From Candidatus Curtissbacteria bacterium (lineage in GTDB: Bacteria > Patescibacteriota > Microgenomatia > Curtissbacterales > GWA2-41-24): a stretch of DNA of 64,000 bases. Positions 9,389 to 52,031 of the stretch are shown here, in pieces. The position numbers and the translations under genes were made by a program. The notes below the pieces were generated by a model. It did not search any database. It was not told the DNA's origin and saw only the letters and a program-made list of their open reading frames with translations. How positions within the stretch are numbered: position 1 is the stretch's first letter; each line of letters begins with the position of its first letter. Location: assembly GCA_024654445.1 (NCBI GenBank), contig JANLHP010000022.1:15332-79331 (forward strand). Direction: 5' to 3'.

Positions 9389-9397
9389 AACTTATGT

Positions 9398-26316: not shown

Positions 26317-26365
26317 CATCGACTTTGTAAAACTCGGGAAAACTATTGTACACCTCAAAAGGAAA

Positions 26366-32189: not shown

Positions 32190-32202
32190 ACTTTAAAAAA
32201 GA

Positions 32203-35789: not shown

Positions 35790-36395
35790 TTGATTTATGC
35801 AAAAATAGACTTCCTGTCCTCGCTAATGTCCGACCCAGATTTTTTTCATGACATAATCTCAGATCACGTTAAGGTTGTTCTCGAACTGCCAACAGAAGAG
35901 ATTAACGATTTAGCAGCCGACATTCAAGAAACTCTTAGGCGAGGCGGCAAAGTAATTTTCTTTGGTAATGGCGGTTCGGCTACTCAAGCTGCCCATTGGG
36001 CAGAGGAATTTGTCGGAAGATTTGTTAAAAAAAGAAAACCTCTCGCTTGCTTGGCACTTGGAACAAGCTCCGCCAACTTAACAGGAATCGCTAATGATTT
36101 CGGGTTCGATGAGGTATTCGCAAGAGAGTTGGAAGTTTTAGGAAACAAAAAAGACCTAGCAATAGGCGTATCAACATCTGGAAACTCGCCAAATATTTTA
36201 AACGGATTGCAAACTGCTAAGAAAAAGGGAATAAAATCCTGGATATTAACAGGCAAAAGTAAAAACAAAGCAAAAAAATTAGCAGACAAATCTCTTTCGG
36301 TCGCCTCGGACAAAACGGCAAGAATTCAAGAAATTCATGCTCTTGTAATCCACATGGTTTGCGAAAAGATTGACGAAAAAGTAAAAGCAAATTAA
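35790..36395 (+). CDS. gmhA: Sedoheptulose-7-phosphate isomerase (SIS domain).
   Basis: KVIFFGNGGSATQAAHWAEEF and STSGNS SIS motifs. Length is about 200 aa. Confidence 0.85.
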   Translation: MIYAKIDFLSSLMSDPDFFHDIISDHVKVVLELPTEEINDLAADIQETLRRGGKVIFFGNGGSATQAAHWAEEFVGRFVKKRKPLACLALGTSSANLTGIANDFGFDEVFARELEVLGNKKDLAIGVSTSGNSPNILNGLQTAKKKGIKSWILTGKSKNKAKKLADKSLSVASDKTARIQEIHALVIHMVCEKIDEKVKAN

Positions 36396-37699
36396 AGCAG
36401 CATCGAAACAGCTCTGTACAGATTTCTCGTCACAACTGTATCTTCCGGCACAGCGTATCGCCCGTCAGATAATCCGTAACCGGTTTCCACTGCAATGAAC
36501 TTCAAGCCTGCTCTCTTTGCGCACTCTGCATCCACAGTCGAATCTCCGATAAAATAGCTCGAATTAAGATCAATATTAAAATCTCTTACAGCCTGTCTTA
36601 TCATCCCAATTTTAGGCTTTCTGCAACTGCAGTTTATTTTCAGTTCTGCCAACTCCCGATAAAAACCTTTTTCCGGATGATGCGGGCAGTAATAAATGGC
36701 ATCCACTTTTATCCCTTCTCGTCCAAGTTCCGTCTCCATTTTTTTATGGATTCTATCTAGCTCTTCCACTCTGATAAAACCTTTTGCGATAGCTGGCTGA
36801 TTAGTGATTACTATCGCTAAAAAATCCGATTTATTAATCTTTTTAATAGCCTGAGCCGTAAATGGGTATAATTTAAAACTGGAAAACCTCACATTATGAG
36901 TCCCATCATGCTCATTTATTGTTCCGTCTCTGTCTAAAAAAATTGCTTTTCTTTTGTTTTTCAAATTTAATCTAGTGATCTTTCCAGAAGAATAGTCCGC
37001 TCTTACCCTTTTAAGCCTTGCGATAGTACCCACATCTTTAAGGTACTCAGGAGTGTTGTAGGCGAAGATCTTACCGCCACTCTTTAATACTGCCTCAAAT
37101 ATATCTTTTTCAAGATCAGATTTCTCCTTCTTCTTAATATATTTAAAGATCTCTGGCGAAAAGATGAAAATACCGGCATTAGTTAAGTTTTTAAACAACA
37201 GGCTTTTCGGATGAACTTTGTCCTTTCTTACCAGAAAAGAAATTACTTGATTGTTGGTGTCAGTCTCGACTAAATCAGAATCAAATGGGTGATCGTTCGG
37301 ATGGACGACAATTGTCGCGACAGAACCTTTATGGGCTTTATGGAATTTAGTCAGGCGATAAAGATCGATATCAAGCATTACATCGCCGGAAAATAAAACA
37401 AAATCATCTTTAACAAGCAATTCGAGTTGTTTCATAGCCCCAGCCGTACCCAGTGGTACCGCTTCTGTTAAATGGTGAATCCTTAACCCCCACCTTTCAC
37501 CGTCTTCGAAGTAATCTTCAATTTGGTCTCCTAAATGGCCTGAAAGAATCCAGAGGTTTTTTACCCCAGATCTTTTTAATAGAAAAATTTGATGCTCAAG
37601 AAGAGGTTTGTTACCAATTTTAATAAGAGGTTTAGGTGTATTGGATGTTAGCCTCCCTAACCTTTCACCCTTACCCCCTGCAAGTATTACAGCATCCAT
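36392..37699 (-). CDS. Bifunctional D-glycero-alpha-D-manno-heptose-1-phosphate nucleotidyltransferase (HddC-like) fused to HAD D,D-heptose-1,7-bisphosphate phosphatase (GmhB-like).
   Basis: N-terminus AVILAGGKGERLG...KPLI (NTP_transferase). C-terminus AIFLDRDGTIN and the CSCRKP zinc motif of GmhB. Confidence 0.8.
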   Translation of the reverse strand: MDAVILAGGKGERLGRLTSNTPKPLIKIGNKPLLEHQIFLLKRSGVKNLWILSGHLGDQIEDYFEDGERWGLRIHHLTEAVPLGTAGAMKQLELLVKDDFVLFSGDVMLDIDLYRLTKFHKAHKGSVATIVVHPNDHPFDSDLVETDTNNQVISFLVRKDKVHPKSLLFKNLTNAGIFIFSPEIFKYIKKKEKSDLEKDIFEAVLKSGGKIFAYNTPEYLKDVGTIARLKRVRADYSSGKITRLNLKNKRKAIFLDRDGTINEHDGTHNVRFSSFKLYPFTAQAIKKINKSDFLAIVITNQPAIAKGFIRVEELDRIHKKMETELGREGIKVDAIYYCPHHPEKGFYRELAELKINCSCRKPKIGMIRQAVRDFNIDLNSSYFIGDSTVDAECAKRAGLKFIAVETGYGLSDGRYAVPEDTVVTRNLYRAVSMLL

Positions 37700-37701
37700 G
37701 T

Positions 37702-38700
37702 TTAAAAATCATTCGGCATCTTGTAGATTATTTGACTACCATTGCTCTCGAATTTAAATGGCACAAATAGTAGCCTCTTAAGTTTTGCCCTTACCTTTTC
37801 CTGCTCTTCAGGCTTTACAAAAAGAAGCATAAAGCCACCCCCCCCCGCTCCTAACAGTTTGCCTCCCAAAGCTCCGGCTTCTTTTGCACTCAGATAAAGG
37901 TCGTCGATAACTTTATTAGAAATTTTAGTCGTTAGGCTCCTCTTAATTGCCCACGATTCATCAAGAAGCCGACCAAAGTCCTCAATTGGCGCTTTTGTGC
38001 TAACCAATATTTTTTGAGCATCATCAACAAGTCGAAGCATTTTTTTAAGCTCTCTTTTTTTCTTCGATGTTGCCTTAATCTGGCTTTTGGCTACATCGGA
38101 AGCATTCCTGGAAAACCCGGTAAAAAAAAGCATCAAGTGGTCAAGAAGTAAATTTTGTCTACCCTGGTTCATCATAATTGGAGTCACCTTTATTGTGGGA
38201 CCAGCAGAAAATTCAATTCTGTTCAAACCTCCAAAAGCTGCGATTGTTTGATCTTGAGAACCGACGTTTTCTTTTATCAATTTTTGCTCAACATATATAG
38301 CATCCTGCGCAAGTTGAAGTTTATCCACCATTTTTCCTTCGAGGCCATAGAGAGAATTCAAAAAACCAACCGTAAAAGAAGAGCTTGACCCCAATCCGGA
38401 CATTGCTGGAAGGTCCGCATTGTGTTGCATTTCCAGCCCCGACTCATGGCCTACAAACTTTAGGCACTCGCGAACCGAAGGATGATTTATTTGACTAATA
38501 TTCCTTTTATGCTCCTGTTTTGTATACCTAATTCTATAGTTGTATTTGAAAAAAGGCGGCAAGTGACGGCATGTAACGTAACAATATTTATTAATCGAAG
38601 CGGCAATAACAGCACCGCCGCCATTTTTTTCATACCACGCCGGATAATCAGTACCACCGCCGAAAAATGAAATCCTAAAAGGAGTTCTTGAAATTACCAT
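37702..38700 (-). CDS. hddA: GHMP sugar kinase (D-glycero-alpha-D-manno-heptose-7-phosphate kinase HddA-like).
   Basis: ISRTPFRISFFGGGTDYP N-terminus and the GHMP motif PAMSGLGSSSS. Confidence 0.8.
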   Translation of the reverse strand: MVISRTPFRISFFGGGTDYPAWYEKNGGGAVIAASINKYCYVTCRHLPPFFKYNYRIRYTKQEHKRNISQINHPSVRECLKFVGHESGLEMQHNADLPAMSGLGSSSSFTVGFLNSLYGLEGKMVDKLQLAQDAIYVEQKLIKENVGSQDQTIAAFGGLNRIEFSAGPTIKVTPIMMNQGRQNLLLDHLMLFFTGFSRNASDVAKSQIKATSKKKRELKKMLRLVDDAQKILVSTKAPIEDFGRLLDESWAIKRSLTTKISNKVIDDLYLSAKEAGALGGKLLGAGGGGFMLLFVKPEEQEKVRAKLKRLLFVPFKFESNGSQIIYKMPNDF

Positions 38701-39661
38701 TTTGCTTGTACCATTCTACAGTCTTCTGCAACCCTTCCCTCAAAGTAGTATTTGATTTAAAGCCTACCAGCCTCCTCGCAAGGGAAACATCAATCAGTCT
38801 CTTTTTTATCATCGTCGGTTTAGTTTTATCAAAAACAATCTTGGCGTCATCAAAATTTTCAACTTCTATTAGAATTTTCAAAACATCCCTAACGCTCACC
38901 GGAATACCCGTGCCGATATTGAGCGGCTTAAACTTTTTAAGTTTCGTGACTACGAGCATTACTCCTTCGATAAAATCGTCAACATACATTAAGTCCTTCA
39001 CATCTCGTCCGTCACCCCAAACTTCGATCGGATTATGCCTCTCGATAACCTTTCTCACAAGAGCCGGGACTACATGCGACGTTTCCCAAGCAAAGTCGTC
39101 ATAAGGACCATAAAGATTTGCGGGTCTGACAACAACAACATTCATCGGATCCTTTATTTTAGTTGCGTAAATCTCGCAAAGAATCTCACTATATCTCTTC
39201 ATCCAGGCAACCGGAAAATATTTGAAAAAAGGCTCTCCGTTCATCATTTCACTTTCGCGAACTGGGTGATTAGTTACAGGGTAAACGGTATTACTGCTTA
39301 TAAAAAGAAACTTCTTGGCTTTTGCTTCATAAGCGGCTTCGAGCATTAGGGAGTTCATTATGATATTCCCGGTAACATGAACAAGTGGGGTCTTTTCGAT
39401 AACCGCGGCACCCGACGTGTTTGCAGCACACATAAAAACATAATCAGCCCCACGAACTATCTTTCTGCAAAAATCCCCTTTTGTTAAATCGCCTCTTACA
39501 TAATCGATTTTAGAATTAATTATTTGTGGAGATTTTTTATGAACCGTAGCTTTAATCGTTGCTCCTTCACTCAATAACCTATTGATCAAATTTGATCCTA
39601 CAAAGCCAGCTCCGCCAGCAATGACAACTCTTTTATTTTTAAACAATCCTGCCCTCCTCAT
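38675..39661 (-). CDS. NAD(P)-dependent epimerase/reductase of the GDP-L-fucose-synthase type (candidate GDP-4-keto-heptose reductase). The start is trimmed to MRRAGLF.
   Basis: VVIAGGAGFVGSNL Rossmann motif and YPVTNHP...YxxxK-like site. It is paralogous to 41223..42242. Confidence 0.65.
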   Translation of the reverse strand: MRRAGLFKNKRVVIAGGAGFVGSNLINRLLSEGATIKATVHKKSPQIINSKIDYVRGDLTKGDFCRKIVRGADYVFMCAANTSGAAVIEKTPLVHVTGNIIMNSLMLEAAYEAKAKKFLFISSNTVYPVTNHPVRESEMMNGEPFFKYFPVAWMKRYSEILCEIYATKIKDPMNVVVVRPANLYGPYDDFAWETSHVVPALVRKVIERHNPIEVWGDGRDVKDLMYVDDFIEGVMLVVTKLKKFKPLNIGTGIPVSVRDVLKILIEVENFDDAKIVFDKTKPTMIKKRLIDVSLARRLVGFKSNTTLREGLQKTVEWYKQNGNFKNSF

Positions 39662-40205
39662 CTCTCCTGGAAATAATGGGGTTTTTGACAGGCCACCAAA
39701 TATTATATTTAGGATCATTCCATTTTATTGTGAACTGATTTTTTGGGTCGTAGTAAGAAGATTGTTTATAGTGATAAATGTCGTAAGTTGAAAGAACTAG
39801 ATGGCCATTGCCATATAGAGGGGGAATTAAAATTTGAACCCTATTTTTATCGGAAAGTGTAAAGCCTTCCCATTTGCCGAAGTCTTTTGAGTTTTTGTTA
39901 CAGTTAACAACTACAATGTAGAATTTTCCATAAAGACACGAGATCAACTTCCAAGTACGACGATCGCCATGAATCCCTTTCAATACCCCTCGAGATCCAG
40001 TCGAAATATCATCCTCCACAAACTTCAACTTTGAAGCATCTTTTTCGTAGATAGTTCCTTTTAAGTTTTTTTTAATTTCACGAATATACAAATTCTCGTT
40101 GAACAACTCTACATACTCTCCACGAAAATCTTCAAAGGGGTCAAGGTTAAAGAGCAAAAGTCCCTCAAGTTTCGTTTTTAAAATCTTCATTTTCGTAAAA
40201 TTCAA
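39639..40205 (-). CDS. RmlC-like cupin sugar-nucleotide 3,5-epimerase (GDP-heptose epimerase candidate).
   Basis: dTDP-4-dehydrorhamnose 3,5-epimerase fold motifs (FEDFRGEY, GVLKGIHGD). Length is 188 aa. Confidence 0.75.
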   Translation of the reverse strand: MNFTKMKILKTKLEGLLLFNLDPFEDFRGEYVELFNENLYIREIKKNLKGTIYEKDASKLKFVEDDISTGSRGVLKGIHGDRRTWKLISCLYGKFYIVVVNCNKNSKDFGKWEGFTLSDKNRVQILIPPLYGNGHLVLSTYDIYHYKQSSYYDPKNQFTIKWNDPKYNIWWPVKNPIISRRDEEGRIV

Positions 40206-40212
40206 TTTCGAA

Positions 40213-41223
40213 TTATATCAGCTCTCGCTTCGCTCGCCTGATGTAATCTCTCGCTTCGCTCGGAATTATACTACTTAAAATATCCTTAATGGTCCTGTTA
40301 GTCTCGGACTTCTTTTTTTGATTATCTGCTACTTTTACTAAGAATTCTCCCGTGTCTTTATCACCAACAAGCTTTAAACGTCTGGCGGTTTGAAGAACTT
40401 CAATTGAACAGTCAATCAAACCAAAAATCTCCATGAACGACGCAAGCTTTAAAAGTCTTACCTCGTTCCAGAATTTGCTTCTCGAGTTTTTGGCTTTTAG
40501 AATTTCACCAACAGCGTCTCTGAAATAGAGAACATGAGCCGAGATTACTTGCCCACTATCTTGAATGCCTGGTGATTTAAATATTGATTTTCTGCCCAAT
40601 CTAATCGGTGAAAGATCAAAAAGCTCAAATCCTAGGTTCCTCAGAAATACATCAAGATCGCTAAATAAAGGTTGCGACTCGAGGGTTCTTGAAAAAGCAA
40701 TTTCTGCAGAAACACCCAGCACATTTTTTGAAAGCGTTTCTACTGCACCTTTTAAAGCAAAAAGCTCTCCACCCTCTATGTCCAATTTAATAAAATCTAC
40801 ATAGGGAACCTCGTTATCTTTTGCAAATGTGTCAAGAGTTGTAGTTTGCACTTCGATGACCTTTTTAACCCTGAGATTCACTTCGTCCGGGAATCTTTGC
40901 AAAAAAAATGACCTGGCTTTTAGAAATGAGGAGGATGGTAAATTTTTTGTAACGTAAAATTTCTTCTTTTGTGCAGTCTCCCATAAAGCGTAAGGGAAGT
41001 AAGTAGTTTTATTGTCGGAGTATTTATTTAAACGTAAGCATTCCGCCCTGTCAGGGTCAAAGCCGATTATCTCTATATAAGGCTTATAAGCCTCCCAAAA
41101 ATATTCACGTCCGCCCCTTGCCCCAACGTCTACCAAGCGAACCGGTTCATCTTTCAGGATCTTTTTCCTCAGTAAGTATTGAACCAAAAGGGGATTTGAA
41201 TTAATTTTTTCGAATGAACTCAT
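40213..41223 (-). CDS. FkbM-family SAM-dependent methyltransferase (sugar O-methyltransferase candidate).
   Basis: VDVGARGG...IGFDPD and LDIEGGE motifs of the FkbM domain. Confidence 0.7.
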   Translation of the reverse strand: MSSFEKINSNPLLVQYLLRKKILKDEPVRLVDVGARGGREYFWEAYKPYIEIIGFDPDRAECLRLNKYSDNKTTYFPYALWETAQKKKFYVTKNLPSSSFLKARSFFLQRFPDEVNLRVKKVIEVQTTTLDTFAKDNEVPYVDFIKLDIEGGELFALKGAVETLSKNVLGVSAEIAFSRTLESQPLFSDLDVFLRNLGFELFDLSPIRLGRKSIFKSPGIQDSGQVISAHVLYFRDAVGEILKAKNSRSKFWNEVRLLKLASFMEIFGLIDCSIEVLQTARRLKLVGDKDTGEFLVKVADNQKKKSETNRTIKDILSSIIPSEARDYIRRAKRELI

Positions 41224-42242
41224 TAATTAGATTTAAAGTAATTTTTTCTCTTCAAAAACTCTTCCGTGTTTTTCAAATACCAGTTCCATGTTTCCTTAAG
41301 CCCCTCATTAAGTGTCGTAGTGGGATTGTAGTGAATTATTTCTCTTGCAAGGGAAATGTCCATAACTCGTTTTGGAAAACCTGCCGGTTTAGAAGAATCA
41401 AATCGAAAGTTAAAATCAACAACGGTTCGCATGGTCGCAACTAGTTTTTTAATTGTTACTCCTTTACCACTGCCCAAATTTACAAAGCCTCCTTTTGTAC
41501 CAAAGTGAAGCGCTAAAATTACACCTTCGGCGACGTCTCGACTATAAGCAAAATCGCGTATAGCACTTCCGTCACCCCAAACAACAACAGGATCTTCTCC
41601 ATTGTGAATCCTGCTCATGAGGGAAGGGATAACCATTGCGTTCTCCGGGTCAAAGTTATCTCCCGGTCCGTAAACATTGCAAGGCCTGACAACGGCAAAG
41701 CTATCTAGGCCATACTGAGTTTTATAAGCTTTTATTTGTAATTCAGCCATTCGTTTTGCCCATCCCGGATACATGTCCATAGGGGGACCCTCGAATTCTT
41801 CACTTTCATTTTTTTCTTTAAAAACCGACGCGCTTGAATACGCCCCAATAGAACTTGTATACACAACCTTCTTAACACCATTAACTCTACAGGCTTCAAG
41901 AATATTAGTATTCATCATAAGAAGCGGTACGAAAAAACTTGCTGGCTTCGACTTTGTTACTTCGATTGATCCCTTAATCCCGGCAAGGTGAAAGGCAAAA
42001 TCTACTCTCTTTGCTATTTTTTTACAAAATTCAAAACTACTTAAATCTCCGTAAATATGGCGAGCATGTTTATTCACATTAATTTTATCGAGAGAAACAA
42101 TATTCACTTGAGCGCCTGCTCCAACTAAAATATCGACAACTTGTCTGCCTATTAGTCCCGTACCCCCGGTAACCAAGACCCTCCTGTTCCTAAAATTATT
42201 TAATACTTTTTTTTCTAACATGTTGCCCTTCTGTCCTCTCAA
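41223..42242 (-). CDS. NAD(P)-dependent epimerase/reductase of the GDP-L-fucose-synthase type, paralog of 38675..39661.
   Basis: VLVTGGTGLIGRQV and YTSSIGAY motifs, and a C-terminal substrate-binding domain. Confidence 0.65.
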   Translation of the reverse strand: MRGQKGNMLEKKVLNNFRNRRVLVTGGTGLIGRQVVDILVGAGAQVNIVSLDKINVNKHARHIYGDLSSFEFCKKIAKRVDFAFHLAGIKGSIEVTKSKPASFFVPLLMMNTNILEACRVNGVKKVVYTSSIGAYSSASVFKEKNESEEFEGPPMDMYPGWAKRMAELQIKAYKTQYGLDSFAVVRPCNVYGPGDNFDPENAMVIPSLMSRIHNGEDPVVVWGDGSAIRDFAYSRDVAEGVILALHFGTKGGFVNLGSGKGVTIKKLVATMRTVVDFNFRFDSSKPAGFPKRVMDISLAREIIHYNPTTTLNEGLKETWNWYLKNTEEFLKRKNYFKSN

Positions 42243-42263: not shown

Positions 42264-43037
42264 TTATTCAAATACAAAATACGAAGTTCTCGATGTAATG
42301 GGAAGCCTTCTTAATTTAATGTTGTTAAGGCCCAGTACTTCTTTTAGTGCGAGCGTTTCTCCCGGGGAATCATGATCATTAAGTTCGTCAAACGCCACTA
42401 CGCTTCCTTTTACAAGGTGGGGTAAAATTGCCTGCAGACAGTTTTTTGTTGGTTCATATATGTCGAAATCAAAATAGGCGAGCGCGACTATCGTCTCCGG
42501 ACGCTCTTTGAGATATTTAACTGTTTCGACCGAAGCATCTCCTTTTCGTAGCTCATATTTTTTAATATGTGAAAGAGGATTAGAGCCTTCTTGAAATTTC
42601 ATTACCCTGTCAAGATAGTCTTCATAGTTTTTAGTAACAGAAATATTGCCGGCAGTCATCAAGTCCGACCGTCCATCTTTCCTCGATATTCTTGGAAATC
42701 CGCTAAACGTATCAAAACCAACAATCAATTTGTGTCTATTAAAGGGTTCGTAAATTCCTCGCAGTGCTGAAAATATCGCCATATTGTGTCCCCACCTAGT
42801 GCCAAAATCCATAACCACTCCCTGCAGGTCAATTATCTGACGGTACAAAAAATCCATAAAAAGAATTCTGGACAAATCTTTAGAATTTAAAAATAATCCT
42901 AGATTTGAAAAAATTTGATCGTCCGGAATAGGGGAGCTCTTAAAGAGGTCGACAGCCCCCTCGTAGTTAACCGCCTCCTCGCCGCTTAAGTATCTTTTAA
43001 TTCCGACTTTCCCACTCATTCTGTAAATTTTTCGCAT
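42264..43037 (-). CDS. TylF/MycF-family SAM-dependent O-methyltransferase.
   Basis: GVVMDFGTRWGHN and FDTFSGFP motifs characteristic of the macrocin-O-methyltransferase family. Confidence 0.7.
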   Translation of the reverse strand: MRKIYRMSGKVGIKRYLSGEEAVNYEGAVDLFKSSPIPDDQIFSNLGLFLNSKDLSRILFMDFLYRQIIDLQGVVMDFGTRWGHNMAIFSALRGIYEPFNRHKLIVGFDTFSGFPRISRKDGRSDLMTAGNISVTKNYEDYLDRVMKFQEGSNPLSHIKKYELRKGDASVETVKYLKERPETIVALAYFDFDIYEPTKNCLQAILPHLVKGSVVAFDELNDHDSPGETLALKEVLGLNNIKLRRLPITSRTSYFVFE

Positions 43038-43062: not shown

Positions 43063-44172
43063 TTAAATATATTCCCTTACATGCGCCGGTATTGGCCTTT
43101 TTCCCTCATACGCAATTACCCAGGCCCAATAACGTATCCTTCCACTAATCAAATCAAAATCATATTTATTCGAACCTTTGGCACGTACCAGCCTTACTGG
43201 TTTCAACAAACCTCCTTCTTTGATGACATCAGCAAGTTCCTTTGGGCTCGGATTAAAGTTGAGTTTATTCTCGAGGGCTTCATCAATAGTTTGGTAAACC
43301 CGACTATCCCGTTCACCATGCGCAGACACCCTTATCTTTTCAACCGGAACGCTCAGAAGCTTAGCAAAAAATGCTTTATCTATTTTGTCGTATTCACTTT
43401 TAGTCATTACAAACGAAGCAGCAAGAGAATTTTCGATAAGGTGACTTTCATTAAGCGTCATTGGTACTCCTGTGACGTAGCGATTTTTTGTTAACCAATT
43501 AAGAATTATTTGGGACCCGGATTTTCCGTATTTAATCGCCAACCCTTCAATTAATTCTTTCTGAAGAGGGCTCATAGAGCCAATTCGTCCCTGGTCCAAA
43601 GGACTAAAAGCAACAAGCTGCAAATTATTTTGTTGGCAATAATCGAAGACCCCGTTATATTCGACGGATCTCTCGAAAATATTATATTCCGATTGGATCG
43701 AAGCGAGCTTGATTTTTCCGAGTAACTTGCTTGCTCTTTGAAGCTCAGTTTGCGAGAAGTTACCAACACCAATATATCTTACCTTCCCGTCACCAACTAA
43801 ATCGGAAAGCGCCCTAAAGGTCTCCTCAAAAGATACAGAATAGTTCGGCCAGTGAACCTGATATAAGTCAATATAGTCTGTACTAAGCCTCTCAAGGCTC
43901 GCGTTGCAAGCCGCAATTACAGAGCCATAAGAACTGTGTTCTGGAGAAAATTTAGTACCAACAATTACGTGAGCTCTATTTTTTTTAATTGCGGCTCCAA
44001 CAAGCTTTTCGGCAAGTCCGTCTCCATAGCTCTCTGCCGTATCGATAAAAGTCATTCCAAGTGAAACCCCTTTCTGGAGTAAATAGATAAATTTCTTTTG
44101 GGAAACTTTACTAAAATCAAAACCCGTTCCTTGTCCAATTGGGGGAAGTTTTAAAAAACTACTCTTTTGCAT
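43063..44172 (-). CDS. Aldo/keto reductase fused to a C-terminal ParB/sulfiredoxin-like (ParBc) domain. The start is trimmed to MQKSSFLKL.
   Basis: An AKR barrel (FIDTAESYGDG...) followed by GLLKPVRLVRAKGSNKYDFDLISGRIRYWAWVIAYEGKRPIPAHV, which matches the ParB N-domain GxRR box. Confidence 0.65.
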   Translation of the reverse strand: MQKSSFLKLPPIGQGTGFDFSKVSQKKFIYLLQKGVSLGMTFIDTAESYGDGLAEKLVGAAIKKNRAHVIVGTKFSPEHSSYGSVIAACNASLERLSTDYIDLYQVHWPNYSVSFEETFRALSDLVGDGKVRYIGVGNFSQTELQRASKLLGKIKLASIQSEYNIFERSVEYNGVFDYCQQNNLQLVAFSPLDQGRIGSMSPLQKELIEGLAIKYGKSGSQIILNWLTKNRYVTGVPMTLNESHLIENSLAASFVMTKSEYDKIDKAFFAKLLSVPVEKIRVSAHGERDSRVYQTIDEALENKLNFNPSPKELADVIKEGGLLKPVRLVRAKGSNKYDFDLISGRIRYWAWVIAYEGKRPIPAHVREYI

Positions 44173-45094
44173 ATCTAGAAATTTCCTTGGTGAGGCTTCG
44201 GTTGTCAAGACCGTTTTGTAAAAGCAGCCATTCTCGGCTACCGAAAACGGAAAATTGTTTGTCTGCAACTGCTAGTTTGTTCAAAGTTATTTTATTTTTT
44301 GCTTGTGAAATTATGTCAGCAACTATAGTTCCTAAACCGCCGATTTCCGAGTTCTCTTCAATAGTTATTAATTTTGAGGATTTTTTTAAAATGTCAGCAA
44401 GCTCCATACTTACTGGTTTAAGTCTGAAAACATCGATAAGGCCAACATCTATGCCGCGAGTTACCAATTCCTCGCAGACTTCAAAAGCCCTCGACGTCAT
44501 ATAACCTGTGCTTATAACATTTACACTCCTGAGCCCTCTTAAAATACTAAAACCATTTTTGAAATCTCTACTGTTTTTATAAAAATTCGGAAAGCATCCT
44601 TTGTCGAGTCTTATATACGAAGGCCCATTCATTTTATATGAACTTTGAACACTAAATGCCGCCGTTTTATTATCACAAGGATTATAAATAGTAATTTCCG
44701 GAAGTATCCTCATCGCTCCAATATCCATAACTCCGTGGTGCGTTGGTCCGTCAAAGCTGAATGAAAAACCTGCGCCGACGCCAATAATGGTAACGGGCAA
44801 ATTCATACTACAGACGCTGAACTTTATCTGCTCGAAGCACCTCAGCGTAACGTATGAGCAAATACCGTAGCAAAAAACCTTTTTCCCGGAAGCAGCAAGC
44901 CCCGCCGAAACGTCAATCATATTTTGTTCAGCAACACCGATATTAATAAATTGCTCGGGGAAGTCTTTTTTGAATTTTCTTAAAACGAATGCGTCCAAAT
45001 CATCCGATATAAACAGAACGTTCTTGTCTCTTTTACCCAGATTGTATATTTCTTCAAAAAAAGCGTCACGGATGTCAACTTTAGAAACCTTCAC
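44159..45094 (-). CDS. Transketolase C-terminal subunit (Pyr plus C-terminal domains).
   Basis: Split-transketolase C-terminal section motifs (NIGVAEQNM, EDGPTHHG-like FDGPTHHG). Confidence 0.85.
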   Translation of the reverse strand: MKVSKVDIRDAFFEEIYNLGKRDKNVLFISDDLDAFVLRKFKKDFPEQFINIGVAEQNMIDVSAGLAASGKKVFCYGICSYVTLRCFEQIKFSVCSMNLPVTIIGVGAGFSFSFDGPTHHGVMDIGAMRILPEITIYNPCDNKTAAFSVQSSYKMNGPSYIRLDKGCFPNFYKNSRDFKNGFSILRGLRSVNVISTGYMTSRAFEVCEELVTRGIDVGLIDVFRLKPVSMELADILKKSSKLITIEENSEIGGLGTIVADIISQAKNKITLNKLAVADKQFSVFGSREWLLLQNGLDNRSLTKEISRYAKE

Positions 45095-45095
45095 A

Positions 45096-45965
45096 TCATC
45101 CCTCTATAATTTCTTTTCTCGCCGCCCTTAGCTCTTCTTCGGAAAGCGCCGCGTTATGCCACCTTAAATTATTTTCCATAAACGAAACACCCTTACCCTT
45201 TATTGTGTTAGCGATAACAACTACCGGCTTTTTAGAAAGTTCAATCTTGCCAAATGTGCCCAGAATCTCACCAAAATCGTGACCGTTAATTTCAAAAATA
45301 TTCCACCCAAAGCTCATCATTTTCTCCTTAAAGTTTTTATACAGTCCTTCGTCATCGATGACATCAGTTACCATTAATCTGTTTCTGTCTATAATTACGA
45401 CTAAATTATTGAGTTTGTAATCACTTGCGAAAATAACCGATTCCCAAATAGAACCCTCGAAAGGCTCAGAATCGCCGATAATAGTATATGCTCTGTAATT
45501 TTCCCCGTTTTTTTTAGCAGCGAGAGCAATGCCGGCAGCAACCCCAACCGAATGACCAATTGAACCCGTGTTAAAATCCACCCCGTTTATCCATGTTTCC
45601 AGCTGACCTCCAAGTCCACCATTTTCGCCGTAAGAGCTATACATCTCTTTTGAAATTATTCCTAAATCTAAAAAGATTGCGTAAAGAGCGGTACAGGCAT
45701 GTCCCTTACTTAAGATAAACCGATCCCTATTTTCCCAGTTCAAATTATTCGTTTTATAACGTAAAATTTTTCCGTAATACAAAGCCACCAGTAATTCGAC
45801 GCAAGAATAAGTTCCTCCAAGATGAGCCTTACCGCTTTTCGCGGCCGCGTTTAAAACCTCGAGTCGTACCCACCTTGATTTATCTTTAAGATCGGCTTTT
45901 AGGCCCGCAGTCGAAGACGAGGACCGCAAGCCCCGCTTCTTCGCAGAAAGGCTTTGCTTCTTCAT
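45096..45965 (-). CDS. Transketolase N-terminal subunit (TPP-binding).
   Basis: GHxG...GDSE...ESV TPP-binding motif (TIIGDSEPFEGSIWES). Confidence 0.85.
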   Translation of the reverse strand: MKKQSLSAKKRGLRSSSSTAGLKADLKDKSRWVRLEVLNAAAKSGKAHLGGTYSCVELLVALYYGKILRYKTNNLNWENRDRFILSKGHACTALYAIFLDLGIISKEMYSSYGENGGLGGQLETWINGVDFNTGSIGHSVGVAAGIALAAKKNGENYRAYTIIGDSEPFEGSIWESVIFASDYKLNNLVVIIDRNRLMVTDVIDDEGLYKNFKEKMMSFGWNIFEINGHDFGEILGTFGKIELSKKPVVVIANTIKGKGVSFMENNLRWHNAALSEEELRAARKEIIEG

Positions 45966-47683
45966 ATTTGCATGTCATTTGGACTAATAGGCTCGATAAG
46001 CTTTTGCTTACTGTCGCAAACTACTTCGACAAAAATTGGGTTGTCGTCAGCCATGATTTTTTTAAGTTTTTCACTAATATCCTGCCACCTGTCGATGATT
46101 TCATAGTTCAGGTCAAAAGCCTCGGCAACTCGCCTTAAATTTAAAACCGCTATCCCCGTTTTATCATCCGAGCCGATACGCCTCCCTTCAAAAAAAGTAT
46201 CCTGCCATCTCCTCATAGAAACATAGCCGCCATTATTGATTACAAAGACCTTTACATTAAGTCCATAATAAGAAATTGTCTTCAATTCCTGAATATTGAG
46301 CTCAAGTGAACCATCTCCCGTCACCGCAAGAATTTGAGAATTCTTATCTTCGACACTCGCGCCGATTGCCAAAGGAATACTAAGCCCCATGGCCCCAAAA
46401 GTGCCGGATGTTATTTCTCTTTGGCCGCTATTAAATTGCCACACCTGACCGCCTATGTAATAATTCGACCCTGAATCTGTCACCATAACGTGGTTTTTAT
46501 TGGCCATCTGATCCAATTTGTACATGAAGTAATAAAGATCAATTGGATTCCTTTTCATACTCTTGTCAACTGCCGGATATTTAGCTTTCAGTTCCTGACA
46601 ACTTTTGAGCCAAGCTCGTCTCTCAACTGAAATTTTCCTTGGAAGTTTTAGGTAAAGGTGCTCGATAAAATCTTTGACATCGTAGTTCAAAGAAATATCA
46701 ATTTTGACACCAGGTTTTTTCAGTTCATCGCCCTCTATGTCAACGACTGCTATTTTTGCGCGCCTGTCAAAGCAATCCAAGTTAGGACCGACAAAAGGAA
46801 TTGCGAGTCTGCTTCCAAGAACAAAAACAAAATCGGCCTGTTTCATAACTTGATTGGAAAAACGATTTCCCCTAATCCCCGCGAGCCCCATATTGTGCTC
46901 ATCACTATAAGGAAGAATATCTATACCCAGCCTGGAAAAAGCAACAGGCGCACCGCAGGAGTCGACAAGTTTTTTAAAAGATCCAATTGCTTTTCCTTGT
47001 CTAATTCCGTGTCCGGCGACAATTAGAGGCCTCTTTGATTTGCCAAACATCGTCAGTACTCTTGAAACATCTCTTTGGAGATTCCTGTTTAAATTGTTCT
47101 TGGGCACCTTAAAACCCTTAAGGCTGAGGGGGTCAACAAGGGCACTCTGGACATCGTGGGGAATGTCGAGCCAAACCGGGCCGGGTCTTCCACTTGTTGC
47201 CAAATAAAGCGCTTTTTCTAAATGATATCTGATTGAAGTTGGGTTTGTGATTATTTGTGCGTATTTTGTCATAGGTTTTACAACCGGGATAATATTAATT
47301 TCTGCCGTACCGAAACTCCTCAAGCTCTTAAGGTTAACCTTATGAGTTGTGTGTCTTAATTCCACTTGTCCTGAAATCACTAAAACAGGAGCAGCGTCTA
47401 CCCAAGCTTCTGCAAGACCGGGAATTGCGTTCGTTGCTCCCGGCCCCGCTGTTAGGCAAACCACGCCTGGGGACTGTTTTAACCTCGCATACGCTTCGGC
47501 CATCATCGGAGATGCTGCCTCATTTCGTACGCAATAGTAATTAATTTTTTTCTCCTTTGCTATCGCATCGTTCAAATACATAGCGCCGTAACCGGTCAAG
47601 AGAAAAATGTCTCTCATCCGGTTCTTGACTAAAAATTGCACGACATAATCGGCAACTCTAATTTTTTTGGGAGAATGCTTCAC
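45962..47683 (-). CDS. Thiamine-diphosphate-dependent enzyme of the acetolactate-synthase family (second copy).
   Basis: ALS three-domain layout with the TPP motif VTGDGSLELNIQEL...NNGGY. Confidence 0.8.
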   Translation of the reverse strand: MKHSPKKIRVADYVVQFLVKNRMRDIFLLTGYGAMYLNDAIAKEKKINYYCVRNEAASPMMAEAYARLKQSPGVVCLTAGPGATNAIPGLAEAWVDAAPVLVISGQVELRHTTHKVNLKSLRSFGTAEINIIPVVKPMTKYAQIITNPTSIRYHLEKALYLATSGRPGPVWLDIPHDVQSALVDPLSLKGFKVPKNNLNRNLQRDVSRVLTMFGKSKRPLIVAGHGIRQGKAIGSFKKLVDSCGAPVAFSRLGIDILPYSDEHNMGLAGIRGNRFSNQVMKQADFVFVLGSRLAIPFVGPNLDCFDRRAKIAVVDIEGDELKKPGVKIDISLNYDVKDFIEHLYLKLPRKISVERRAWLKSCQELKAKYPAVDKSMKRNPIDLYYFMYKLDQMANKNHVMVTDSGSNYYIGGQVWQFNSGQREITSGTFGAMGLSIPLAIGASVEDKNSQILAVTGDGSLELNIQELKTISYYGLNVKVFVINNGGYVSMRRWQDTFFEGRRIGSDDKTGIAVLNLRRVAEAFDLNYEIIDRWQDISEKLKKIMADDNPIFVEVVCDSKQKLIEPISPNDMQI

Positions 47684-48726
47684 TAGAAAGGTCCCCTAAA
47701 CTTATTTTCGTAAGTGAAAAACTCTTCGCCTTTCAGGTTAGTGGATTTAAGTCCTAATTTCTCCTCAACCGACCGTACTATCACCTCGGCATTTGGATAA
47801 AAAAGATTTTCCAAAGGTCTCGTGCACGGTGCCGGCGCGAAAGCGAACCCGAGGCGTTTTACTGGAGATTTTAAACTTGAAAAACTTTTTTCAGAAATGA
47901 TTGCCGCCACCTCGGCGCTAAAACCACAAAAAGTCCAGTCATAGTCAGCAACAATTACATGTCCTGTTTTTTCGACCGATTTTAGAATCGTCTCGCTGTC
48001 AAAAGGATAAATCGACCGGGCGTCTACTACTTCTGCACTAATTCCTCGCTTCTTCAAAATATTTGCGGCGTGGATTGCCTCCACATTCATATAAGATGTA
48101 GCAACAATCGTGATGTCACCTCCGCGCCTCAACACATTCGCTTTACCAAGCGGAACTAGCTTATTTTCATCGTCAACTTTATCCACAACGTCATAAAGCA
48201 TGCGATGCTCAAGAACGATAACCGGATTTTCGTCTCTTATTGCAGAGATCAAAAGCCCTTTCGCGTCATGGGGAGTAGTTGGCATCACAACTTTAAGTCC
48301 CGGTAAATGGGCAAAATATGATTGAAGGCTTTTACTGTGTTGATAAGCCTGACCCCACCCTTTTCCGATAATCGCCCTGATAACAAGCGGCACCTTAAGC
48401 TTACCCCCGGAACCGTAATGGAAACTCGACACCATATTTGCAAGCTGGTTCATTGCAAGCAGCAAAAAATCAACCCTTATGTGGACATTTATAGGTTTAA
48501 GTCCTGACACTGCTGCGCCTAGCCCAAAACCCACAAGGGAATCTTCACAAAGAGGAGTGCTAAAAACCCTATCGCCGAATTCCTCTTTCAGTCCAATCGT
48601 TGAACCGAAAATGCCTTTAAAGTCAGCAACATCTATTCCGTAAATAAAAACGTTTTTATCGCGCTTCATTTCTTCCTGAAGCCCTTCCCTTATTGCATCT
48701 CTATAACTGATTCTTCTACTTTTCAT
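47683..48726 (-). CDS. 2-oxoacid dehydrogenase E1 component beta-subunit homolog (transketolase-like Pyr and C-terminal domains). The start is trimmed to MKSRRISY.
   Basis: YRDAIREGLQEEM N-terminus typical of E1-beta, and a C-terminal TKC domain. Confidence 0.8.
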   Translation of the reverse strand: MKSRRISYRDAIREGLQEEMKRDKNVFIYGIDVADFKGIFGSTIGLKEEFGDRVFSTPLCEDSLVGFGLGAAVSGLKPINVHIRVDFLLLAMNQLANMVSSFHYGSGGKLKVPLVIRAIIGKGWGQAYQHSKSLQSYFAHLPGLKVVMPTTPHDAKGLLISAIRDENPVIVLEHRMLYDVVDKVDDENKLVPLGKANVLRRGGDITIVATSYMNVEAIHAANILKKRGISAEVVDARSIYPFDSETILKSVEKTGHVIVADYDWTFCGFSAEVAAIISEKSFSSLKSPVKRLGFAFAPAPCTRPLENLFYPNAEVIVRSVEEKLGLKSTNLKGEEFFTYENKFRGPF

Positions 48727-49684
48727 GAAATACGTTTTTATAAAGTTCCGCAGGATTAGGGAAAGCTGAATTCCTGGCTTTTTTAAAGGATCTTTCGACC
48801 GCAAGATCAATGTCCTTGCAAATTTTATCCAGTTCCCCCTTGCCGACCCCCAGCTTTTTGAGTTTTGACGCCAGAATTTTTAAAGGATCGACTTTAAGCC
48901 ATTTCTGGTACTCCTCTTGTGATCTGTAACCGGCACTAAAATCTTCGTGGGTACCTACATGTTCCAGATATCTATAGTACTTTAGGTAAATAAATGCTGG
49001 GGTCTGTTTTGCAAAAATTGCATTTTTAGCACGGCTTGCAAGATTAAAGACGACTTCAGCGTCCGTCGAAGTGGAAGAAAAAACGGAACAGTTAAACCTT
49101 GAAACAATAGCCGAAATCGATTTATATCCATGTCTAAGCGCGGGTGGCGTATGAACGGCAAAACCATTGTCTTCGCAAACAAAGAGAACAGGAAGCTTAA
49201 AAAGGCTTGCCATATTTAAACTCTCCCAAAAACTACCTTCATCTATTGCCCCATCCCCAAAAAAAACGGCGCTTACGCCTCTTGTTCCTTTCTTTTTCAG
49301 CGCATAAGCTGACCCAACCGCAACAGGAATAGTGCTTGCAACAACCGCAGAAGTTGCAACCAAACCCCGATCCGGATCAGACAGATGCATCGAACCACCT
49401 TTACCGCGAACAACCCCGCTCTCCCGCCCAAACATTTCAGAAAAAAACCTAAAAGTATCTCCGCTTCTTGCCAGATAAAGGCCATGACTTCTATAAGTTC
49501 CAAAAAGAAGATCAAGGCCGGATAGGGCGCTGGCTACCCCAGAAACAATTGCCTCTTCACCCATAGACATGTGCATGGGTGTTTTCATTTCATTACTATC
49601 GTAGACTTCTATAATTTTTTCCTCAGCTCTTCTGATAAGATAGGCTTTTTCGAAGAGTTTAAGGTTTAAATTTTTGCGAGTCAT
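48716..49684 (-). CDS. 2-oxoacid (pyruvate) dehydrogenase E1 component alpha-subunit homolog (TPP-binding).
   Basis: GDGAIDEGSFWESLNMA TPP motif and the YRSHG... E1-alpha motifs. Confidence 0.8.
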   Translation of the reverse strand: MTRKNLNLKLFEKAYLIRRAEEKIIEVYDSNEMKTPMHMSMGEEAIVSGVASALSGLDLLFGTYRSHGLYLARSGDTFRFFSEMFGRESGVVRGKGGSMHLSDPDRGLVATSAVVASTIPVAVGSAYALKKKGTRGVSAVFFGDGAIDEGSFWESLNMASLFKLPVLFVCEDNGFAVHTPPALRHGYKSISAIVSRFNCSVFSSTSTDAEVVFNLASRAKNAIFAKQTPAFIYLKYYRYLEHVGTHEDFSAGYRSQEEYQKWLKVDPLKILASKLKKLGVGKGELDKICKDIDLAVERSFKKARNSAFPNPAELYKNVFHEK

Positions 49685-50674
49685 TTATCTTGCATAGTAA
49701 TCTCTCCAGTAATCGAGCATATCAAGAAGCGTTTTTTCAAAGGGAATTTCAGCCTTCCAACCGGTTTCGCGACTAAACTTACCAACAGCAGGAATTTGAA
49801 GTGTGACATCAGAAGGCCTCAACCTTTTTTTGTCAACTATGATTTTTATATCATCTCGCGTCGACATTTTTATTAGCTTATTTAACATCTGCCCAATAGT
49901 CATCGTTTCAACTCCGCCAATATTATAAACTTCGCCTGCTCTACACCTGGTAACCAAAAGCCAGTAAGCGCGAACAGCATCCCTCACGTCCATAAAAGTT
50001 CTGACGCTTTTTAAATTTCCGACATACACAGTTGGCTTTTGTTTGCCAGCCTCGATGGCTGCAACTTGCTTTGCGAAATTCGAGGGCGCAAAAACTTCAC
50101 CCCTTCTTGGACCCTCGTGTGTAAACATGCGTGTTCTTATCGCCCTAATTTTCCAAGACGACCAATACTGAAAACCCAACATGTCCTCTGCAACTTTAGA
50201 AACCGCGTAAGGCGATGCCGGCCTAAAAGGATTAGTTTCGACAATAGGTATTTCGCTTTTCAAAACCTGTCCGTAAACTTCGGAAGAGCTGCAAACATGA
50301 ATAATTGGGTCATAACCCTTTTCATCTTTTAGCTGTTTAACATTCTCCAAAAGATTGCCCGTTCCAATAACATTCGCTTCAAGCGTCCCAATTGGAGCGA
50401 TAAAACTAAAATCTACATAAGATTGCGCGGCAAGATGAAAAATAACGTCGGGCTTATGTTTTAAAAGTACACCGCGAGTGGAAAAGGGATCAACCAAATC
50501 GCCGTATTCTAAAATTACACGATCCAAAACGTGCTTTATGTTATCTTTTGGAGATCTCCACCTGACGAATCCGACAACTTCAACTCCCGGCTGGTTCTCT
50601 AGAATATAATCCACCATATGACTTCCCACAAATCCGGTTATACCCGTAATTAATACTTTTTTGATTTGTCCCAT
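49685..50674 (-). CDS. GDP-mannose 4,6-dehydratase family enzyme (Gmd/Rmd/GDP-heptose dehydratase type).
   Basis: ITGITGFVGSH, SSSEVYG, and SPYAVSK...THEGPRRGE motifs of the GMD family. Confidence 0.75.
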   Translation of the reverse strand: MGQIKKVLITGITGFVGSHMVDYILENQPGVEVVGFVRWRSPKDNIKHVLDRVILEYGDLVDPFSTRGVLLKHKPDVIFHLAAQSYVDFSFIAPIGTLEANVIGTGNLLENVKQLKDEKGYDPIIHVCSSSEVYGQVLKSEIPIVETNPFRPASPYAVSKVAEDMLGFQYWSSWKIRAIRTRMFTHEGPRRGEVFAPSNFAKQVAAIEAGKQKPTVYVGNLKSVRTFMDVRDAVRAYWLLVTRCRAGEVYNIGGVETMTIGQMLNKLIKMSTRDDIKIIVDKKRLRPSDVTLQIPAVGKFSRETGWKAEIPFEKTLLDMLDYWRDYYAR

Positions 50675-50747: not shown

Positions 50748-52031
50748 TTAATCATTCAATGAATGTCTCTGCCATTTAAGCATGGGCCTTACGACGCCAG
50801 GATAAAATCCTGTTGAGTGTCCGCGAACCGAGTTTCCTTCAGTCGGATCAACTACATCAAAAACAACCGCGTCAGGAACATCGACCTCTCGCGTCTTGCC
50901 ACTCTCCTCATCAACGACAGTAACCCTAGCAGAAAAAACTCCTTCAGATAAAAAATTTCCCGGAATCACACATCTACTTTTATATTTTCCACTTTTTTTC
51001 ATTCTGATTTTCCTGTCTATATCCTCAGCAGAATTAAAAATGGTTAGGCCTTCACTATTTATAATTTGTAAATTGCATCCGACCCAGCGGTCCCCATTCG
51101 CAGAAAAGCTCTGCTTATTTTTCAAAACCTCAAATTCGACTTCTACGGTTATAGGTTTTCGTATATCAAAAGTATTAGACAAGCGATTATGCTTATCCAA
51201 GGCTTTGACGTTGATAAGCCGCACAACATTATTCGCAAACATACGGCTCGCAACCCTTTTTTTAAGTGAAGCATTGCTCCTTGTTTCTTCCAAATACCTC
51301 GAGACTATTTTTTCAGCGTTGCCGTCTGCAACAATTTTTCCGTCTTTTAAATAGATAACGCGCCGACAGATATTTATAACTGCAGGCAGATTATGAGAAA
51401 CAAAAAGGACAGTTCTGCCCTGCTTACTTACATCCTGCATTTTCCCCAGACTTTTCGATTGAAACGCTGCATCACCCACCGAAAGAACCTCATCGACAAT
51501 AAGTATTTCGGGTTCCAAATGAGCAGCCACAGCAAAAGCCAGCCTTGTATACATTCCAGAAGAATAATGTTTAACCGGCAGATCTAAAAATTTCTCCATC
51601 TCGGCAAAAGAAACAATCTCGTCAAATTTAGACTTTATTTCCAATCGAGTCATGCCCAAAATGGAACCATTTAAAAAAATATTCTCTCGTCCTGTCAGCT
51701 CCGGATGAAATCCGGTCCCAACTTCAAGCAAACTCGCAGTACGCCCCCTGAGTGTAATTTTTCCTTTTGTGGGAGGAGTAATCTGAGAAAGAATCTTCAG
51801 TAGCGTGCTTTTGCCGGCGCCATTTTTACCGATAATACCGACAACTTCGCCAGCGCCAACGTTGAAAGAAACGTTCTTTAGAGGCCAGAACTCATCTTCT
51901 CTTTTTGAACTAAAAACAGATAAAGGGTTTTTGGCAATTTGAGCAATCGAGTCACGAAGTGAATAATATTGTTGTCTTTCCGCAACCCTATATTTTTTAG
52001 AAACCGATTTAACTTCGATAATCGAACTCAT
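50748..52031 (-). CDS. wzt: ABC transporter ATP-binding protein of polysaccharide exporters (Wzt-like) with a C-terminal glycan-binding extension.
   Basis: Walker A GKNGAGKST, signature YSSGM, Walker B LIVDE, and a roughly 180 aa C-terminal beta-rich domain. Confidence 0.85.
   Translation of the reverse strand: MSSIIEVKSVSKKYRVAERQQYYSLRDSIAQIAKNPLSVFSSKREDEFWPLKNVSFNVGAGEVVGIIGKNGAGKSTLLKILSQITPPTKGKITLRGRTASLLEVGTGFHPELTGRENIFLNGSILGMTRLEIKSKFDEIVSFAEMEKFLDLPVKHYSSGMYTRLAFAVAAHLEPEILIVDEVLSVGDAAFQSKSLGKMQDVSKQGRTVLFVSHNLPAVINICRRVIYLKDGKIVADGNAEKIVSRYLEETRSNASLKKRVASRMFANNVVRLINVKALDKHNRLSNTFDIRKPITVEVEFEVLKNKQSFSANGDRWVGCNLQIINSEGLTIFNSAEDIDRKIRMKKSGKYKSRCVIPGNFLSEGVFSARVTVVDEESGKTREVDVPDAVVFDVVDPTEGNSVRGHSTGFYPGVVRPMLKWQRHSLND

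Follow-up and report, generated by a model that had tools for sequence, protein, structure and literature searches.

A widespread aldo-keto reductase with a C-terminal ParB/sulfiredoxin-fold domain is encoded in a conserved nucleotide-sugar gene cassette

Contig JANLHP010000022.1 of a Candidatus Curtissbacteria bacterium (assembly GCA_024654445.1), from which the 64,000 nucleotides at positions 15,332 to 79,331 were analyzed (hereafter the window), encodes a two-domain enzyme in which an aldo-keto reductase (AKR) barrel is joined to a minimal ParB/sulfiredoxin (Srx)-fold domain. The fusion is a real, widespread, and unannotated feature of bacterial genomes, and the protein belongs invariably to a gene cassette that has spread horizontally and makes a nucleotide sugar, probably one of the GDP-heptose type. 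As the best overall explanation, to which we assign a probability of roughly 0.4, the ParB/Srx domain would bind, without hydrolysis, the nucleotide handle of the substrate for a keto-reductase that acts on nucleoside diphosphate (NDP)-sugars. A preliminary description of the gene had proposed a complete AKR barrel fused to a ParB-N/Srx-like domain in a sugar-pathway setting; Pfam matches, 17 of 29 homologous tails, and structure comparison bear out the fusion, and the Pfam and NCBIfam assignments of the cassette genes, together with a neighboring gene for a CalS11-like methyltransferase, bear out the setting.

The whole coding sequence, taken from the open reading frame (ORF) list with its start and stop read directly, occupies positions 43063..44172 of the minus strand (369 codons plus the stop), with an ATG at 44172 and a TAA at 43063-43065. 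The ATG lies in a 14-nt overlap with the upstream transketolase C-half gene, measured to the TAG stop of the latter, and 25 nt separate the TAA from the ATG of the following gene. A longer, TTG-initiated ORF (start at 44268) is an unlikely form of the gene because 35 homologues share the start point of the ATG version in the alignment. A frameshift or read-through into a separate gene was rejected, with the same continuous frame and the same end point being present in all aligned homologues. An NCBI entry from a Candidatus Curtissbacteria metagenome-assembled genome (MAG), labeled simply "aldo/keto reductase", has exactly the same sequence (100% identity).

The ParB/Srx-fold domain comprises residues 272-369 (43066..43359, minus strand). 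Pfam ParB_N aligned with residues 311-367 of the full protein at E 0.0019 and 18.6 bits, and the isolated domain scored 22.1 bits, short of the PF02195 gathering threshold of 26.3 bits; NCBIfam gave weak PRTRC-ParB and Noc matches over the same C-terminal residues. When homologous C-terminal domains were searched singly, 17 of 29 matched ParB_N (best E 1.3e-5), and no other Pfam family was matched by more than two of the 29 isolated tails. A profile built from the tails and compared with the PDB recovered seven sequences, all of them ParB, Spo0J, or Noc, at E-values of 0.09-1 and with the motifs in register. The tail has the characteristic alpha/beta fold of the ParB/Srx superfamily, and the assignment is secure, with the structure comparison being decisive and the single-sequence match marginal. 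That the tail resembles ParB/Srx domains by chance and is none itself would fit the target score below the curated Pfam threshold and the PDB profile E-values of merely 0.09-1, but this explanation is refuted by the structure comparison and we regard its probability as close to nil. The preliminary description had named profile searches giving no significant ParBc/Srx hit as the outcome that would make the similarity fortuitous; once structure was used this was not what we found, the Pfam ParB_N match itself remaining below its cut-off.

The AlphaFold2 model of the full-length protein had a mean predicted local distance difference test score (pLDDT) of 92.8 and a predicted template modeling score (pTM) of 0.90. 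The two domains are joined by about five residues and are predicted to pack rigidly, because a pTM of 0.90 exceeds what the 267-residue barrel alone could supply in a 369-residue chain. Mean-field direct coupling analysis of 261 full-length family sequences (effective number, Meff, ∼210) yielded no interpretable coupling for the domain interface: with gaps included, the strongest couplings reflected correlated indels (in loops 16-22, 174, 203, and 334-336); with gap-rich columns removed, they were indel-adjacent blocks, i.e., alignment-shift artefacts; and the weak inter-domain pairs (167-195 with 274, 290-297, and 357) were gap-adjacent and are left uninterpreted. A Foldseek search of the PDB with the full-length model matched AKR barrels alone (∼265-300 aligned columns), and on this basis no solved structure has the AKR-ParB/Srx architecture.

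We compared the tail with the motifs defined as Boxes I, II, and III in the survey of Kaljevic et al. (PNAS 2025, PMC12704722). The equivalent of Box I (the C motif), located by alignment to ParB and Spo0J, consists of helix P310-E319 and the loop GGLLKP at residues 320-325 (43198..43245, minus strand), and residues 310-325 align with DLSNSIREKGVLQP of ParB, ELADSIREKGLLQP of Spo0J, and LSNSIREKGVLQP of Caulobacter ParB. Over 36 sequences the loop reads GxxLKP, with K324 at least 90% conserved. The equivalent of Box II (the P motif) is G344-R-I-R347, after which a helix opens with the invariant Y-W-A-W of residues 348-351 (43120..43143, minus strand, with the motif beginning at 43143), and this GxxR aligns with GERR of ParB. 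Of the GERRxRA of ParB, the tail retains just the Gly and the second Arg; the Glu is replaced by an invariant Arg, the first Arg by Ile or Val, and the third by the invariant W349. The strings GLLKPVRLVR, FDLISGRIRYWAW, and IPAHV singled out in the preliminary description are indeed present, but its GxRR-like box is the GxxR formed by G344-R345-I346-R347 and not GERR. The residues that show no variation in the tail over the 36 sequences are Y293, A299, N302, P308, P310, P325, G344, R345, R347, W349, W351, and A354.

The tail is the best conserved part of the protein, and its consensus in the aligned homologues is "...VYQTxEEALENKLGFxPSPxxLAxxIxxGxxLKPVRL...YDYDLIxGRIRYWAWVIA...PIPAYIR". A recognizable [YFHW]W[AGSC]W motif occurs in 256 of 267 family sequences, and the four residues preceding it begin with Gly and end with Arg or Lys in ∼90% of those 256. 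Tail and barrel could be compared in 49 loci, and in every one of these the tail was the better conserved, with mean identities to the target of 51% for the tail and 42% for the barrel. The domain keeps both motifs that contact the base and the phosphates in characterized members of the fold, and nucleotide binding would be compatible with its conserved Box I and GxxR.

Box III (ENxQR) is not present: the chain ends at residue 369 (IPAHVREYI*), five residues past the preceding strand, and the Pfam ParB_N alignment stops at profile position 79 of 95. Pfam detected neither a helix-turn-helix (HTH) nor a C-terminal dimerization domain in the 369-residue protein, and no ENxQR, GERRxRA, or deviant Walker-A ParA motif was found in any window ORF of at least 100 codons. 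The fusion protein is not a canonical ParB partition CTPase, lacking Box III, the HTH, ParA, and parS, and a hydrolytic cycle of the ParB type is not expected because Box III is missing. A partition, plasmid, or defense context was rejected, with the neighbors being glycan genes and the window being free of ParA and ParB motifs, which agrees with the earlier statement that no ParA, centromere, or plasmid context exists here. The missing box also bears on a second explanation, in which the domain would bind free CTP, ATP, or GTP, self-associate, and control the reductase or its oligomeric state. Such a nucleoside triphosphate (NTP)-gated switch would resemble the N-engagement of ParB or the CTP-bound PadC dimer and would tie glycan-precursor flux to nucleotide supply. 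Box III, which provides phosphate and magnesium contacts in canonical ParB (PMC12704722), is absent and with it the canonical hydrolytic reset, and the one-to-one coupling to a single AKR clade and a single pathway speaks more for a catalytic accessory than for a general regulator; we consider the switch unlikely.

The AKR (alpha/beta)8 barrel comprises residues 1-267 (43372..44172, minus strand), as delimited by Pfam, AlphaFold2, Foldseek, and a PDB sequence search. Pfam PF00248 (Aldo_ket_red) matched residues 15-267 at E 2.8e-56 over profile positions 5-289 of 291, scoring 191 bits against a cut-off of 24. The top Foldseek structure for the barrel was Tm1743 (5dan; E 9e-25, template modeling score 0.87 on the target), and the PDB sequence search found 2,5-diketogluconate-reductase-like AKRs to be nearest, with Tm1743 at E 2.7e-43. 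Residues D44 (44041-44043), Y49 (44026-44028), K74 (43951-43953), and H107 (43852-43854), whose codons span 43852..44043 of the minus strand, show no variation across 36 full-length homologues and are what we take, from established knowledge of the superfamily, to be the AKR catalytic tetrad. With PF00248 above threshold, the (alpha/beta)8 barrel, and the Asp-Tyr-Lys-His tetrad, the protein qualifies as a member of the AKR superfamily, and the barrel looks like a working NAD(P)H-type reductase.

In the cofactor motif, IPKxxxxxHxxEN, an invariant histidine, H244 (43441-43443), stands at the classical 2'-phosphate-binding Arg position, and the motif Lys is replaced in the target by Met238 (43459-43461), with M238 and H244 being mapped onto residues of AKR1B1. 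The cofactor preference of the family may differ from that of standard NADPH-specific AKRs because H244 replaces the Arg and Met238 the Lys. In established AKR structures, helix alpha8 and the beta8-H2 "IPK...EN" segment border the adenosine end of the NADPH site. The ParB/Srx domain is tethered to helix alpha8, and it might thus bind NAD(P)H at its ADP or 2'-phospho-ADP end, or cap that end, and so tighten or re-specify cofactor binding, an idea in keeping with H244 and Met238 and with the binding of adenine nucleotides by Srx and SerK. The argument rests wholly on topology, however, and AKR barrels bind NADPH without such a domain (the Foldseek matches are NADP complexes of ∼275 residues), which makes a cofactor-side helper quite improbable.

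To define the distribution of the fusion, we examined the best 120 matches from a search of 5.8 billion proteins; all were full-length, with ∼98% coverage and 43-53% identity, and carried PF00248 as their sole annotation. An exhaustive profile search with the tail alone over 1.84 billion cluster representatives returned 373 matches at E≤1e-3, of which 289 were at E≤1e-10. Among the best 150 of the 373, proteins of ∼350-385 residues bear the domain at residues ∼260-375, and the shorter proteins inspected were almost all C-terminal fragments retaining the end of the AKR or very short stubs; a single short match (P0121) had an unrelated N-terminus and a chimeric look. This ParB/Srx subfamily seems to exist solely as a fusion with an AKR, because the long matches carry it as a tail domain and the short ones are mostly AKR-bearing fragments. 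When one genome of each species was scanned with GRIRYWAW, 48 loci were located in 48 species genomes from more than 12 phyla, including Saccharibacteria, Falkow-, Levy-, and Nealsonbacteria, Microgenomates, Chloroflexota/Dehalococcoidia, Planctomycetota, Nitrospirales (many), Alpha-, Gamma-, and Deltaproteobacteria, Omnitrophota, Latescibacterota, and the cultured Heliobacterium mobile DSM 6151.

The fusion gene lies inside one long minus-strand operon. In the order of transcription, and by Pfam and NCBIfam assignment unless stated otherwise, this encodes a Gmd/RmlB-like 4,6-dehydratase of the short-chain dehydrogenase/reductase (SDR) type (49685-50674), E1 alpha-like (48716-49684) and E1 beta-like (47683-48810) proteins, a thiamine diphosphate enzyme resembling acetohydroxyacid synthase (AHAS) and YerE (45962-47683), a split transketolase-like pair directly upstream of the fusion gene (44159..45965, by Pfam; N half 45096-45965, C half 44159-45094), the AKR-ParB/Srx protein, a CalS11-like NDP-sugar O-methyltransferase of 257 residues (42264..43037; PDB 4gf5/3tos, E 5e-62), a first GDP-fucose-synthase-like SDR (41223-42242), an FkbM methyltransferase (40213-41223), an RmlC-like epimerase (39639-40205), a second GDP-fucose-synthase-like SDR (38675-39718), an HddA-like GHMP kinase (37702-38700), and a guanylyltransferase-GmhB fusion (36392-37699); GmhA is divergently transcribed (35790-36395, plus strand). 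GmhA, an HddA-type kinase, GmhB, and an HddC-type guanylyltransferase were the best NCBIfam matches of the respective proteins, every score being below the equivalog cut-off; because this holds for all four, GDP as the nucleotide and heptose as the sugar are only probable. The sugar would then be remodeled by the 4,6-dehydratase, a 3,5-epimerase, reductases, one or more NDP-sugar O-methyltransferases, and up to three thiamine diphosphate-dependent C-C enzymes, and our guess is that the product is a chain-extended or branched methylated heptose.

We compared the cassettes by using tblastn with the window proteins against 51 loci. The numbers of loci with a counterpart were 48 for the CalS11-like gene, 46 for one SDR, 43 for the transketolase halves, 40 for RmlC, 37 for the dehydratase, and 33-35 for E1 alpha/beta, with the AHAS-like and FkbM genes being optional. 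The fusion gene almost always lies directly 5' of the CalS11-like gene. The gene order is the same in a Dehalococcoidia MAG and two metagenome contigs, and the cassette order is kept in bacteria of the candidate phyla radiation (CPR), Chloroflexota, Planctomycetota, Nitrospirales, Proteobacteria, Omnitrophota, and Heliobacterium. The CalS11-like protein (42264-43037) had no Pfam or NCBIfam match. CalS11 (PDB 4gf5/3tos) is a TDP-rhamnose 3'-O-methyltransferase that acts on the NDP-sugar itself. The methyltransferase is the best conserved gene of the cassette, with 55-72% identity to its counterparts in other phyla.

Several loci depart from the common arrangement. About one third hold a second AKR-ParB/Srx paralogue (among them L011, L020, L023, L041, L044, and L045, and positions 8034-9149 of L039, which is the locus of H. 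mobile and has the orthologue of the fusion gene at 9170-10309). The H. mobile locus also has an extra SDR and an inserted B12-binding radical S-adenosylmethionine (SAM) enzyme (6139-8019), and in the Dehalococcoidia MAG (L001, 8047-9966) the transketolase C half is fused to a region that resembles a class-I SAM methyltransferase, as judged from a sequence motif alone. In some second copies the P motif is degenerate, with EHIR, EVKK, QIKK, or EYKK in place of GxxR; all of these keep a basic residue ahead of Y-W/L-A-W, and the PSP-helix-KP segment is kept as well, which suggests subfunctionalized paralogues.

On these data, the reading that we favor, with the ParB/Srx domain as a binder of a nucleotide handle, would operate as follows. 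The barrel would reduce a carbonyl on a nucleotide-linked, possibly GDP-linked, heptose-derived intermediate. The most plausible target would be a ketol or acyloin carbonyl that the neighboring transketolase-, E1-, or AHAS-like enzymes leave behind; the nearest solved AKRs, which are 2,5-diketogluconate-reductase-like, act on just such HOCH2-C(=O)- groups. The ParB/Srx domain would grip the nucleotide diphosphate handle, probably GDP, and position the attached sugar for the barrel of its own chain or of a dimer partner; R347, R345, K324, and R327 would hold the phosphates, and the invariant Y293, W349, and W351 would offer the base or the sugar a stacking surface. The handle would be held without hydrolysis because Box III is lacking. 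A more specific version of this proposal, in which a generic AKR barrel becomes a nucleotide-sugar keto-reductase by virtue of a tail devoted to recognizing GDP- or NDP-sugars and the pathway is an uncharacterized one to a chain-extended or branched methylated heptose, is tentative and, taken as a whole, rather unlikely.

Five points weigh against handle binding. Helix alpha8 of a triosephosphate isomerase (TIM) barrel, from which the linker originates, ends away from the catalytic face, and delivery of the handle in cis is thus not guaranteed. AKRs of the EryBII/TylCII type act on NDP-sugars without an extra domain, and the tail is dispensable for such chemistry. The degenerate P motifs of some paralogues lack the GxxR, and the transketolase could merely supply sedoheptulose-7-phosphate. 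Lastly, among 28 ParB-fold proteins purified for the 2025 survey, 17 showed no NTP binding in vitro (PMC12704722).

The same in vitro result, with most of the ParB-fold proteins assayed binding no NTP (PMC12704722), suits a structural or docking domain without a nucleotide ligand, which would act as a lid or a stabilizer or offer a pathway partner, such as the CalS11-like methyltransferase or the transketolase, a surface to dock on, with the conserved Arg and Trp residues at the interface. The confidently predicted rigid packing (pTM 0.90), the position of the invariant W349 and W351 on the helix after GxxR, the loss of the Gly and the first Arg of the motif in some paralogues, and the methyltransferase gene that is almost always next after the fusion gene are all consistent with such a role. 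Structure alone, in contrast, has difficulty in accounting for the near-universal basic residue at the position of the GxxR Arg and for the retained Box I loop ending in K-P, and we place this explanation behind the NTP-gated switch and ahead of the cofactor-side helper. A second catalytic activity, i.e., an ATP-dependent phosphotransferase that acts on the sugar or an intermediate in the manner of Srx, SerK, or SbnI, would make use of the same fold. The position of the Srx catalytic Cys is occupied by the invariant R345, however, the second domain of SerK and SbnI is lacking (chains of 241-254 residues versus ∼98 here), Box III and the metal ligands are missing, and a dedicated GHMP kinase is already part of the cassette, all of which renders this activity highly improbable.

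Genes for a Wzm/Wzt-type ATP-binding cassette (ABC) exporter (50748-52894, minus strand) are located directly upstream of the cassette, with the Wzt protein showing a weak match to a C-terminal carbohydrate-binding domain. Because this exporter adjoins the cassette, the arrangement suggests that the product enters an ABC-exported surface polysaccharide of this CPR bacterium. A second sugar sub-cluster (24399-34571, minus strand) encodes a NeuB-like synthase, a CMP-type cytidylyltransferase, an aldehyde dehydrogenase, an SDR, an unsplit transketolase-like protein of 645 residues, an NTP transferase, and an epimerase/dehydratase, along with a DmpF/DmpG-like pair of acetaldehyde dehydrogenase and aldolase that is unusual for a glycan locus.

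The ParB-CTPase/Srx fold is now being re-evaluated as a general NTP-binding module, and the fusion family would carry its use into redox enzymology and the synthesis of glycan precursors. If the proposed handle binding is correct, this would be the first ParB-CTPase fold to serve as a substrate-handle module in carbohydrate biosynthesis, and the fusion would mark a conserved multi-phylum pathway to an uncharacterized chain-extended or branched, methylated heptose. In any case it provides a clean marker for the cassette, in which a probable GDP-heptose-type pathway is accompanied by several methyltransferases and by thiamine-dependent C-C enzymes of three kinds. Surveys that apply Pfam thresholds overlook whole fusion families, in this case ∼290 representative clusters labeled just "aldo/keto reductase". 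A cultured host, H. mobile DSM 6151, brings both the sugar product of the cassette and the role of the domain within experimental reach.

Comparison with known systems begins with the short bacterial AKRs (Tm1743, DkgA/DkgB, and YvgN), which share with the fusion family the barrel (33-34% identity to Tm1743), the tetrad, and an NADP-type cofactor motif. They stop after helix alpha8 at ∼275 residues, whereas the fusion family extends ∼100 residues further with the ParB/Srx domain; unlike the 2,5-diketogluconate-reductase-type AKRs, it is limited to one glycan cassette. PadC of M. xanthus (PDB 6ryk) and the N-domain of KorB (PDB 8qa8) have the fold but no enzymatic partner, and both function as CTP binders in DNA segregation or repression; the fusion protein has no DNA-binding domain. 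Srx (PDB 6ky4 and 1yzs) likewise lacks Box III; it is a stand-alone core of equal size, 26% identical over 77 aligned residues. When its F-G-G-C-H-R is aligned with SGRIRY, the Arg corresponds to R347 and the catalytic Cys to R345. Srx has this Cys and a peroxiredoxin context, whereas the fusion has the invariant R345 and no such context, and because the Cys position is an Arg the tail is not a sulfiredoxin. SerK (5x0b) and SbnI (5ujd) are free serine kinases with an additional C-terminal domain and kinase chemistry, of which the fusion shows no sign.

In the literature, we found no paper that describes the AKR-ParB/Srx fusion or its cassette; PMC3482391 mentions ParB and aldo-keto reductase as unrelated toxin domains. 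The parts of the text and supplements of Kaljevic et al. that we examined contain no AKR fusion, which may be explained by the PF02195-based identification of the fold in Fig. 4 of that survey. The closest parallels come from this same work (PMC12704722), which showed that enzyme fusions of ParB-CTPase folds are frequent and that ATP, CTP, or GTP can be the ligand, that an R-to-A substitution in the P motif abolishes NTP binding in the proteins tested, that Box III is often missing or divergent in "orphan" members, and that nucleotide specificity is not predictable from sequence; a fusion with an acetyltransferase binds GTP specifically and one with a SAM-methyltransferase binds ATP. Against this background the preliminary description overstated its case in calling the fusion unexpected, since ParB-fold enzyme fusions are common and this one forms a large conserved family that is not peculiar to the present genome. 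As far as we found, the AKR-ParB/Srx protein is an undescribed example of the already known enzyme-fused ParB-fold proteins: it resembles the surveyed fusions in its ParB/Srx domain of ∼100 residues with Box I and GxxR, its enzyme partner, and the absence of Box III, ParA, and parS, and it differs from them in having an AKR partner within a nucleotide-sugar cassette, a C-terminal domain that is predicted to pack rigidly, and a score below the PF02195 threshold.

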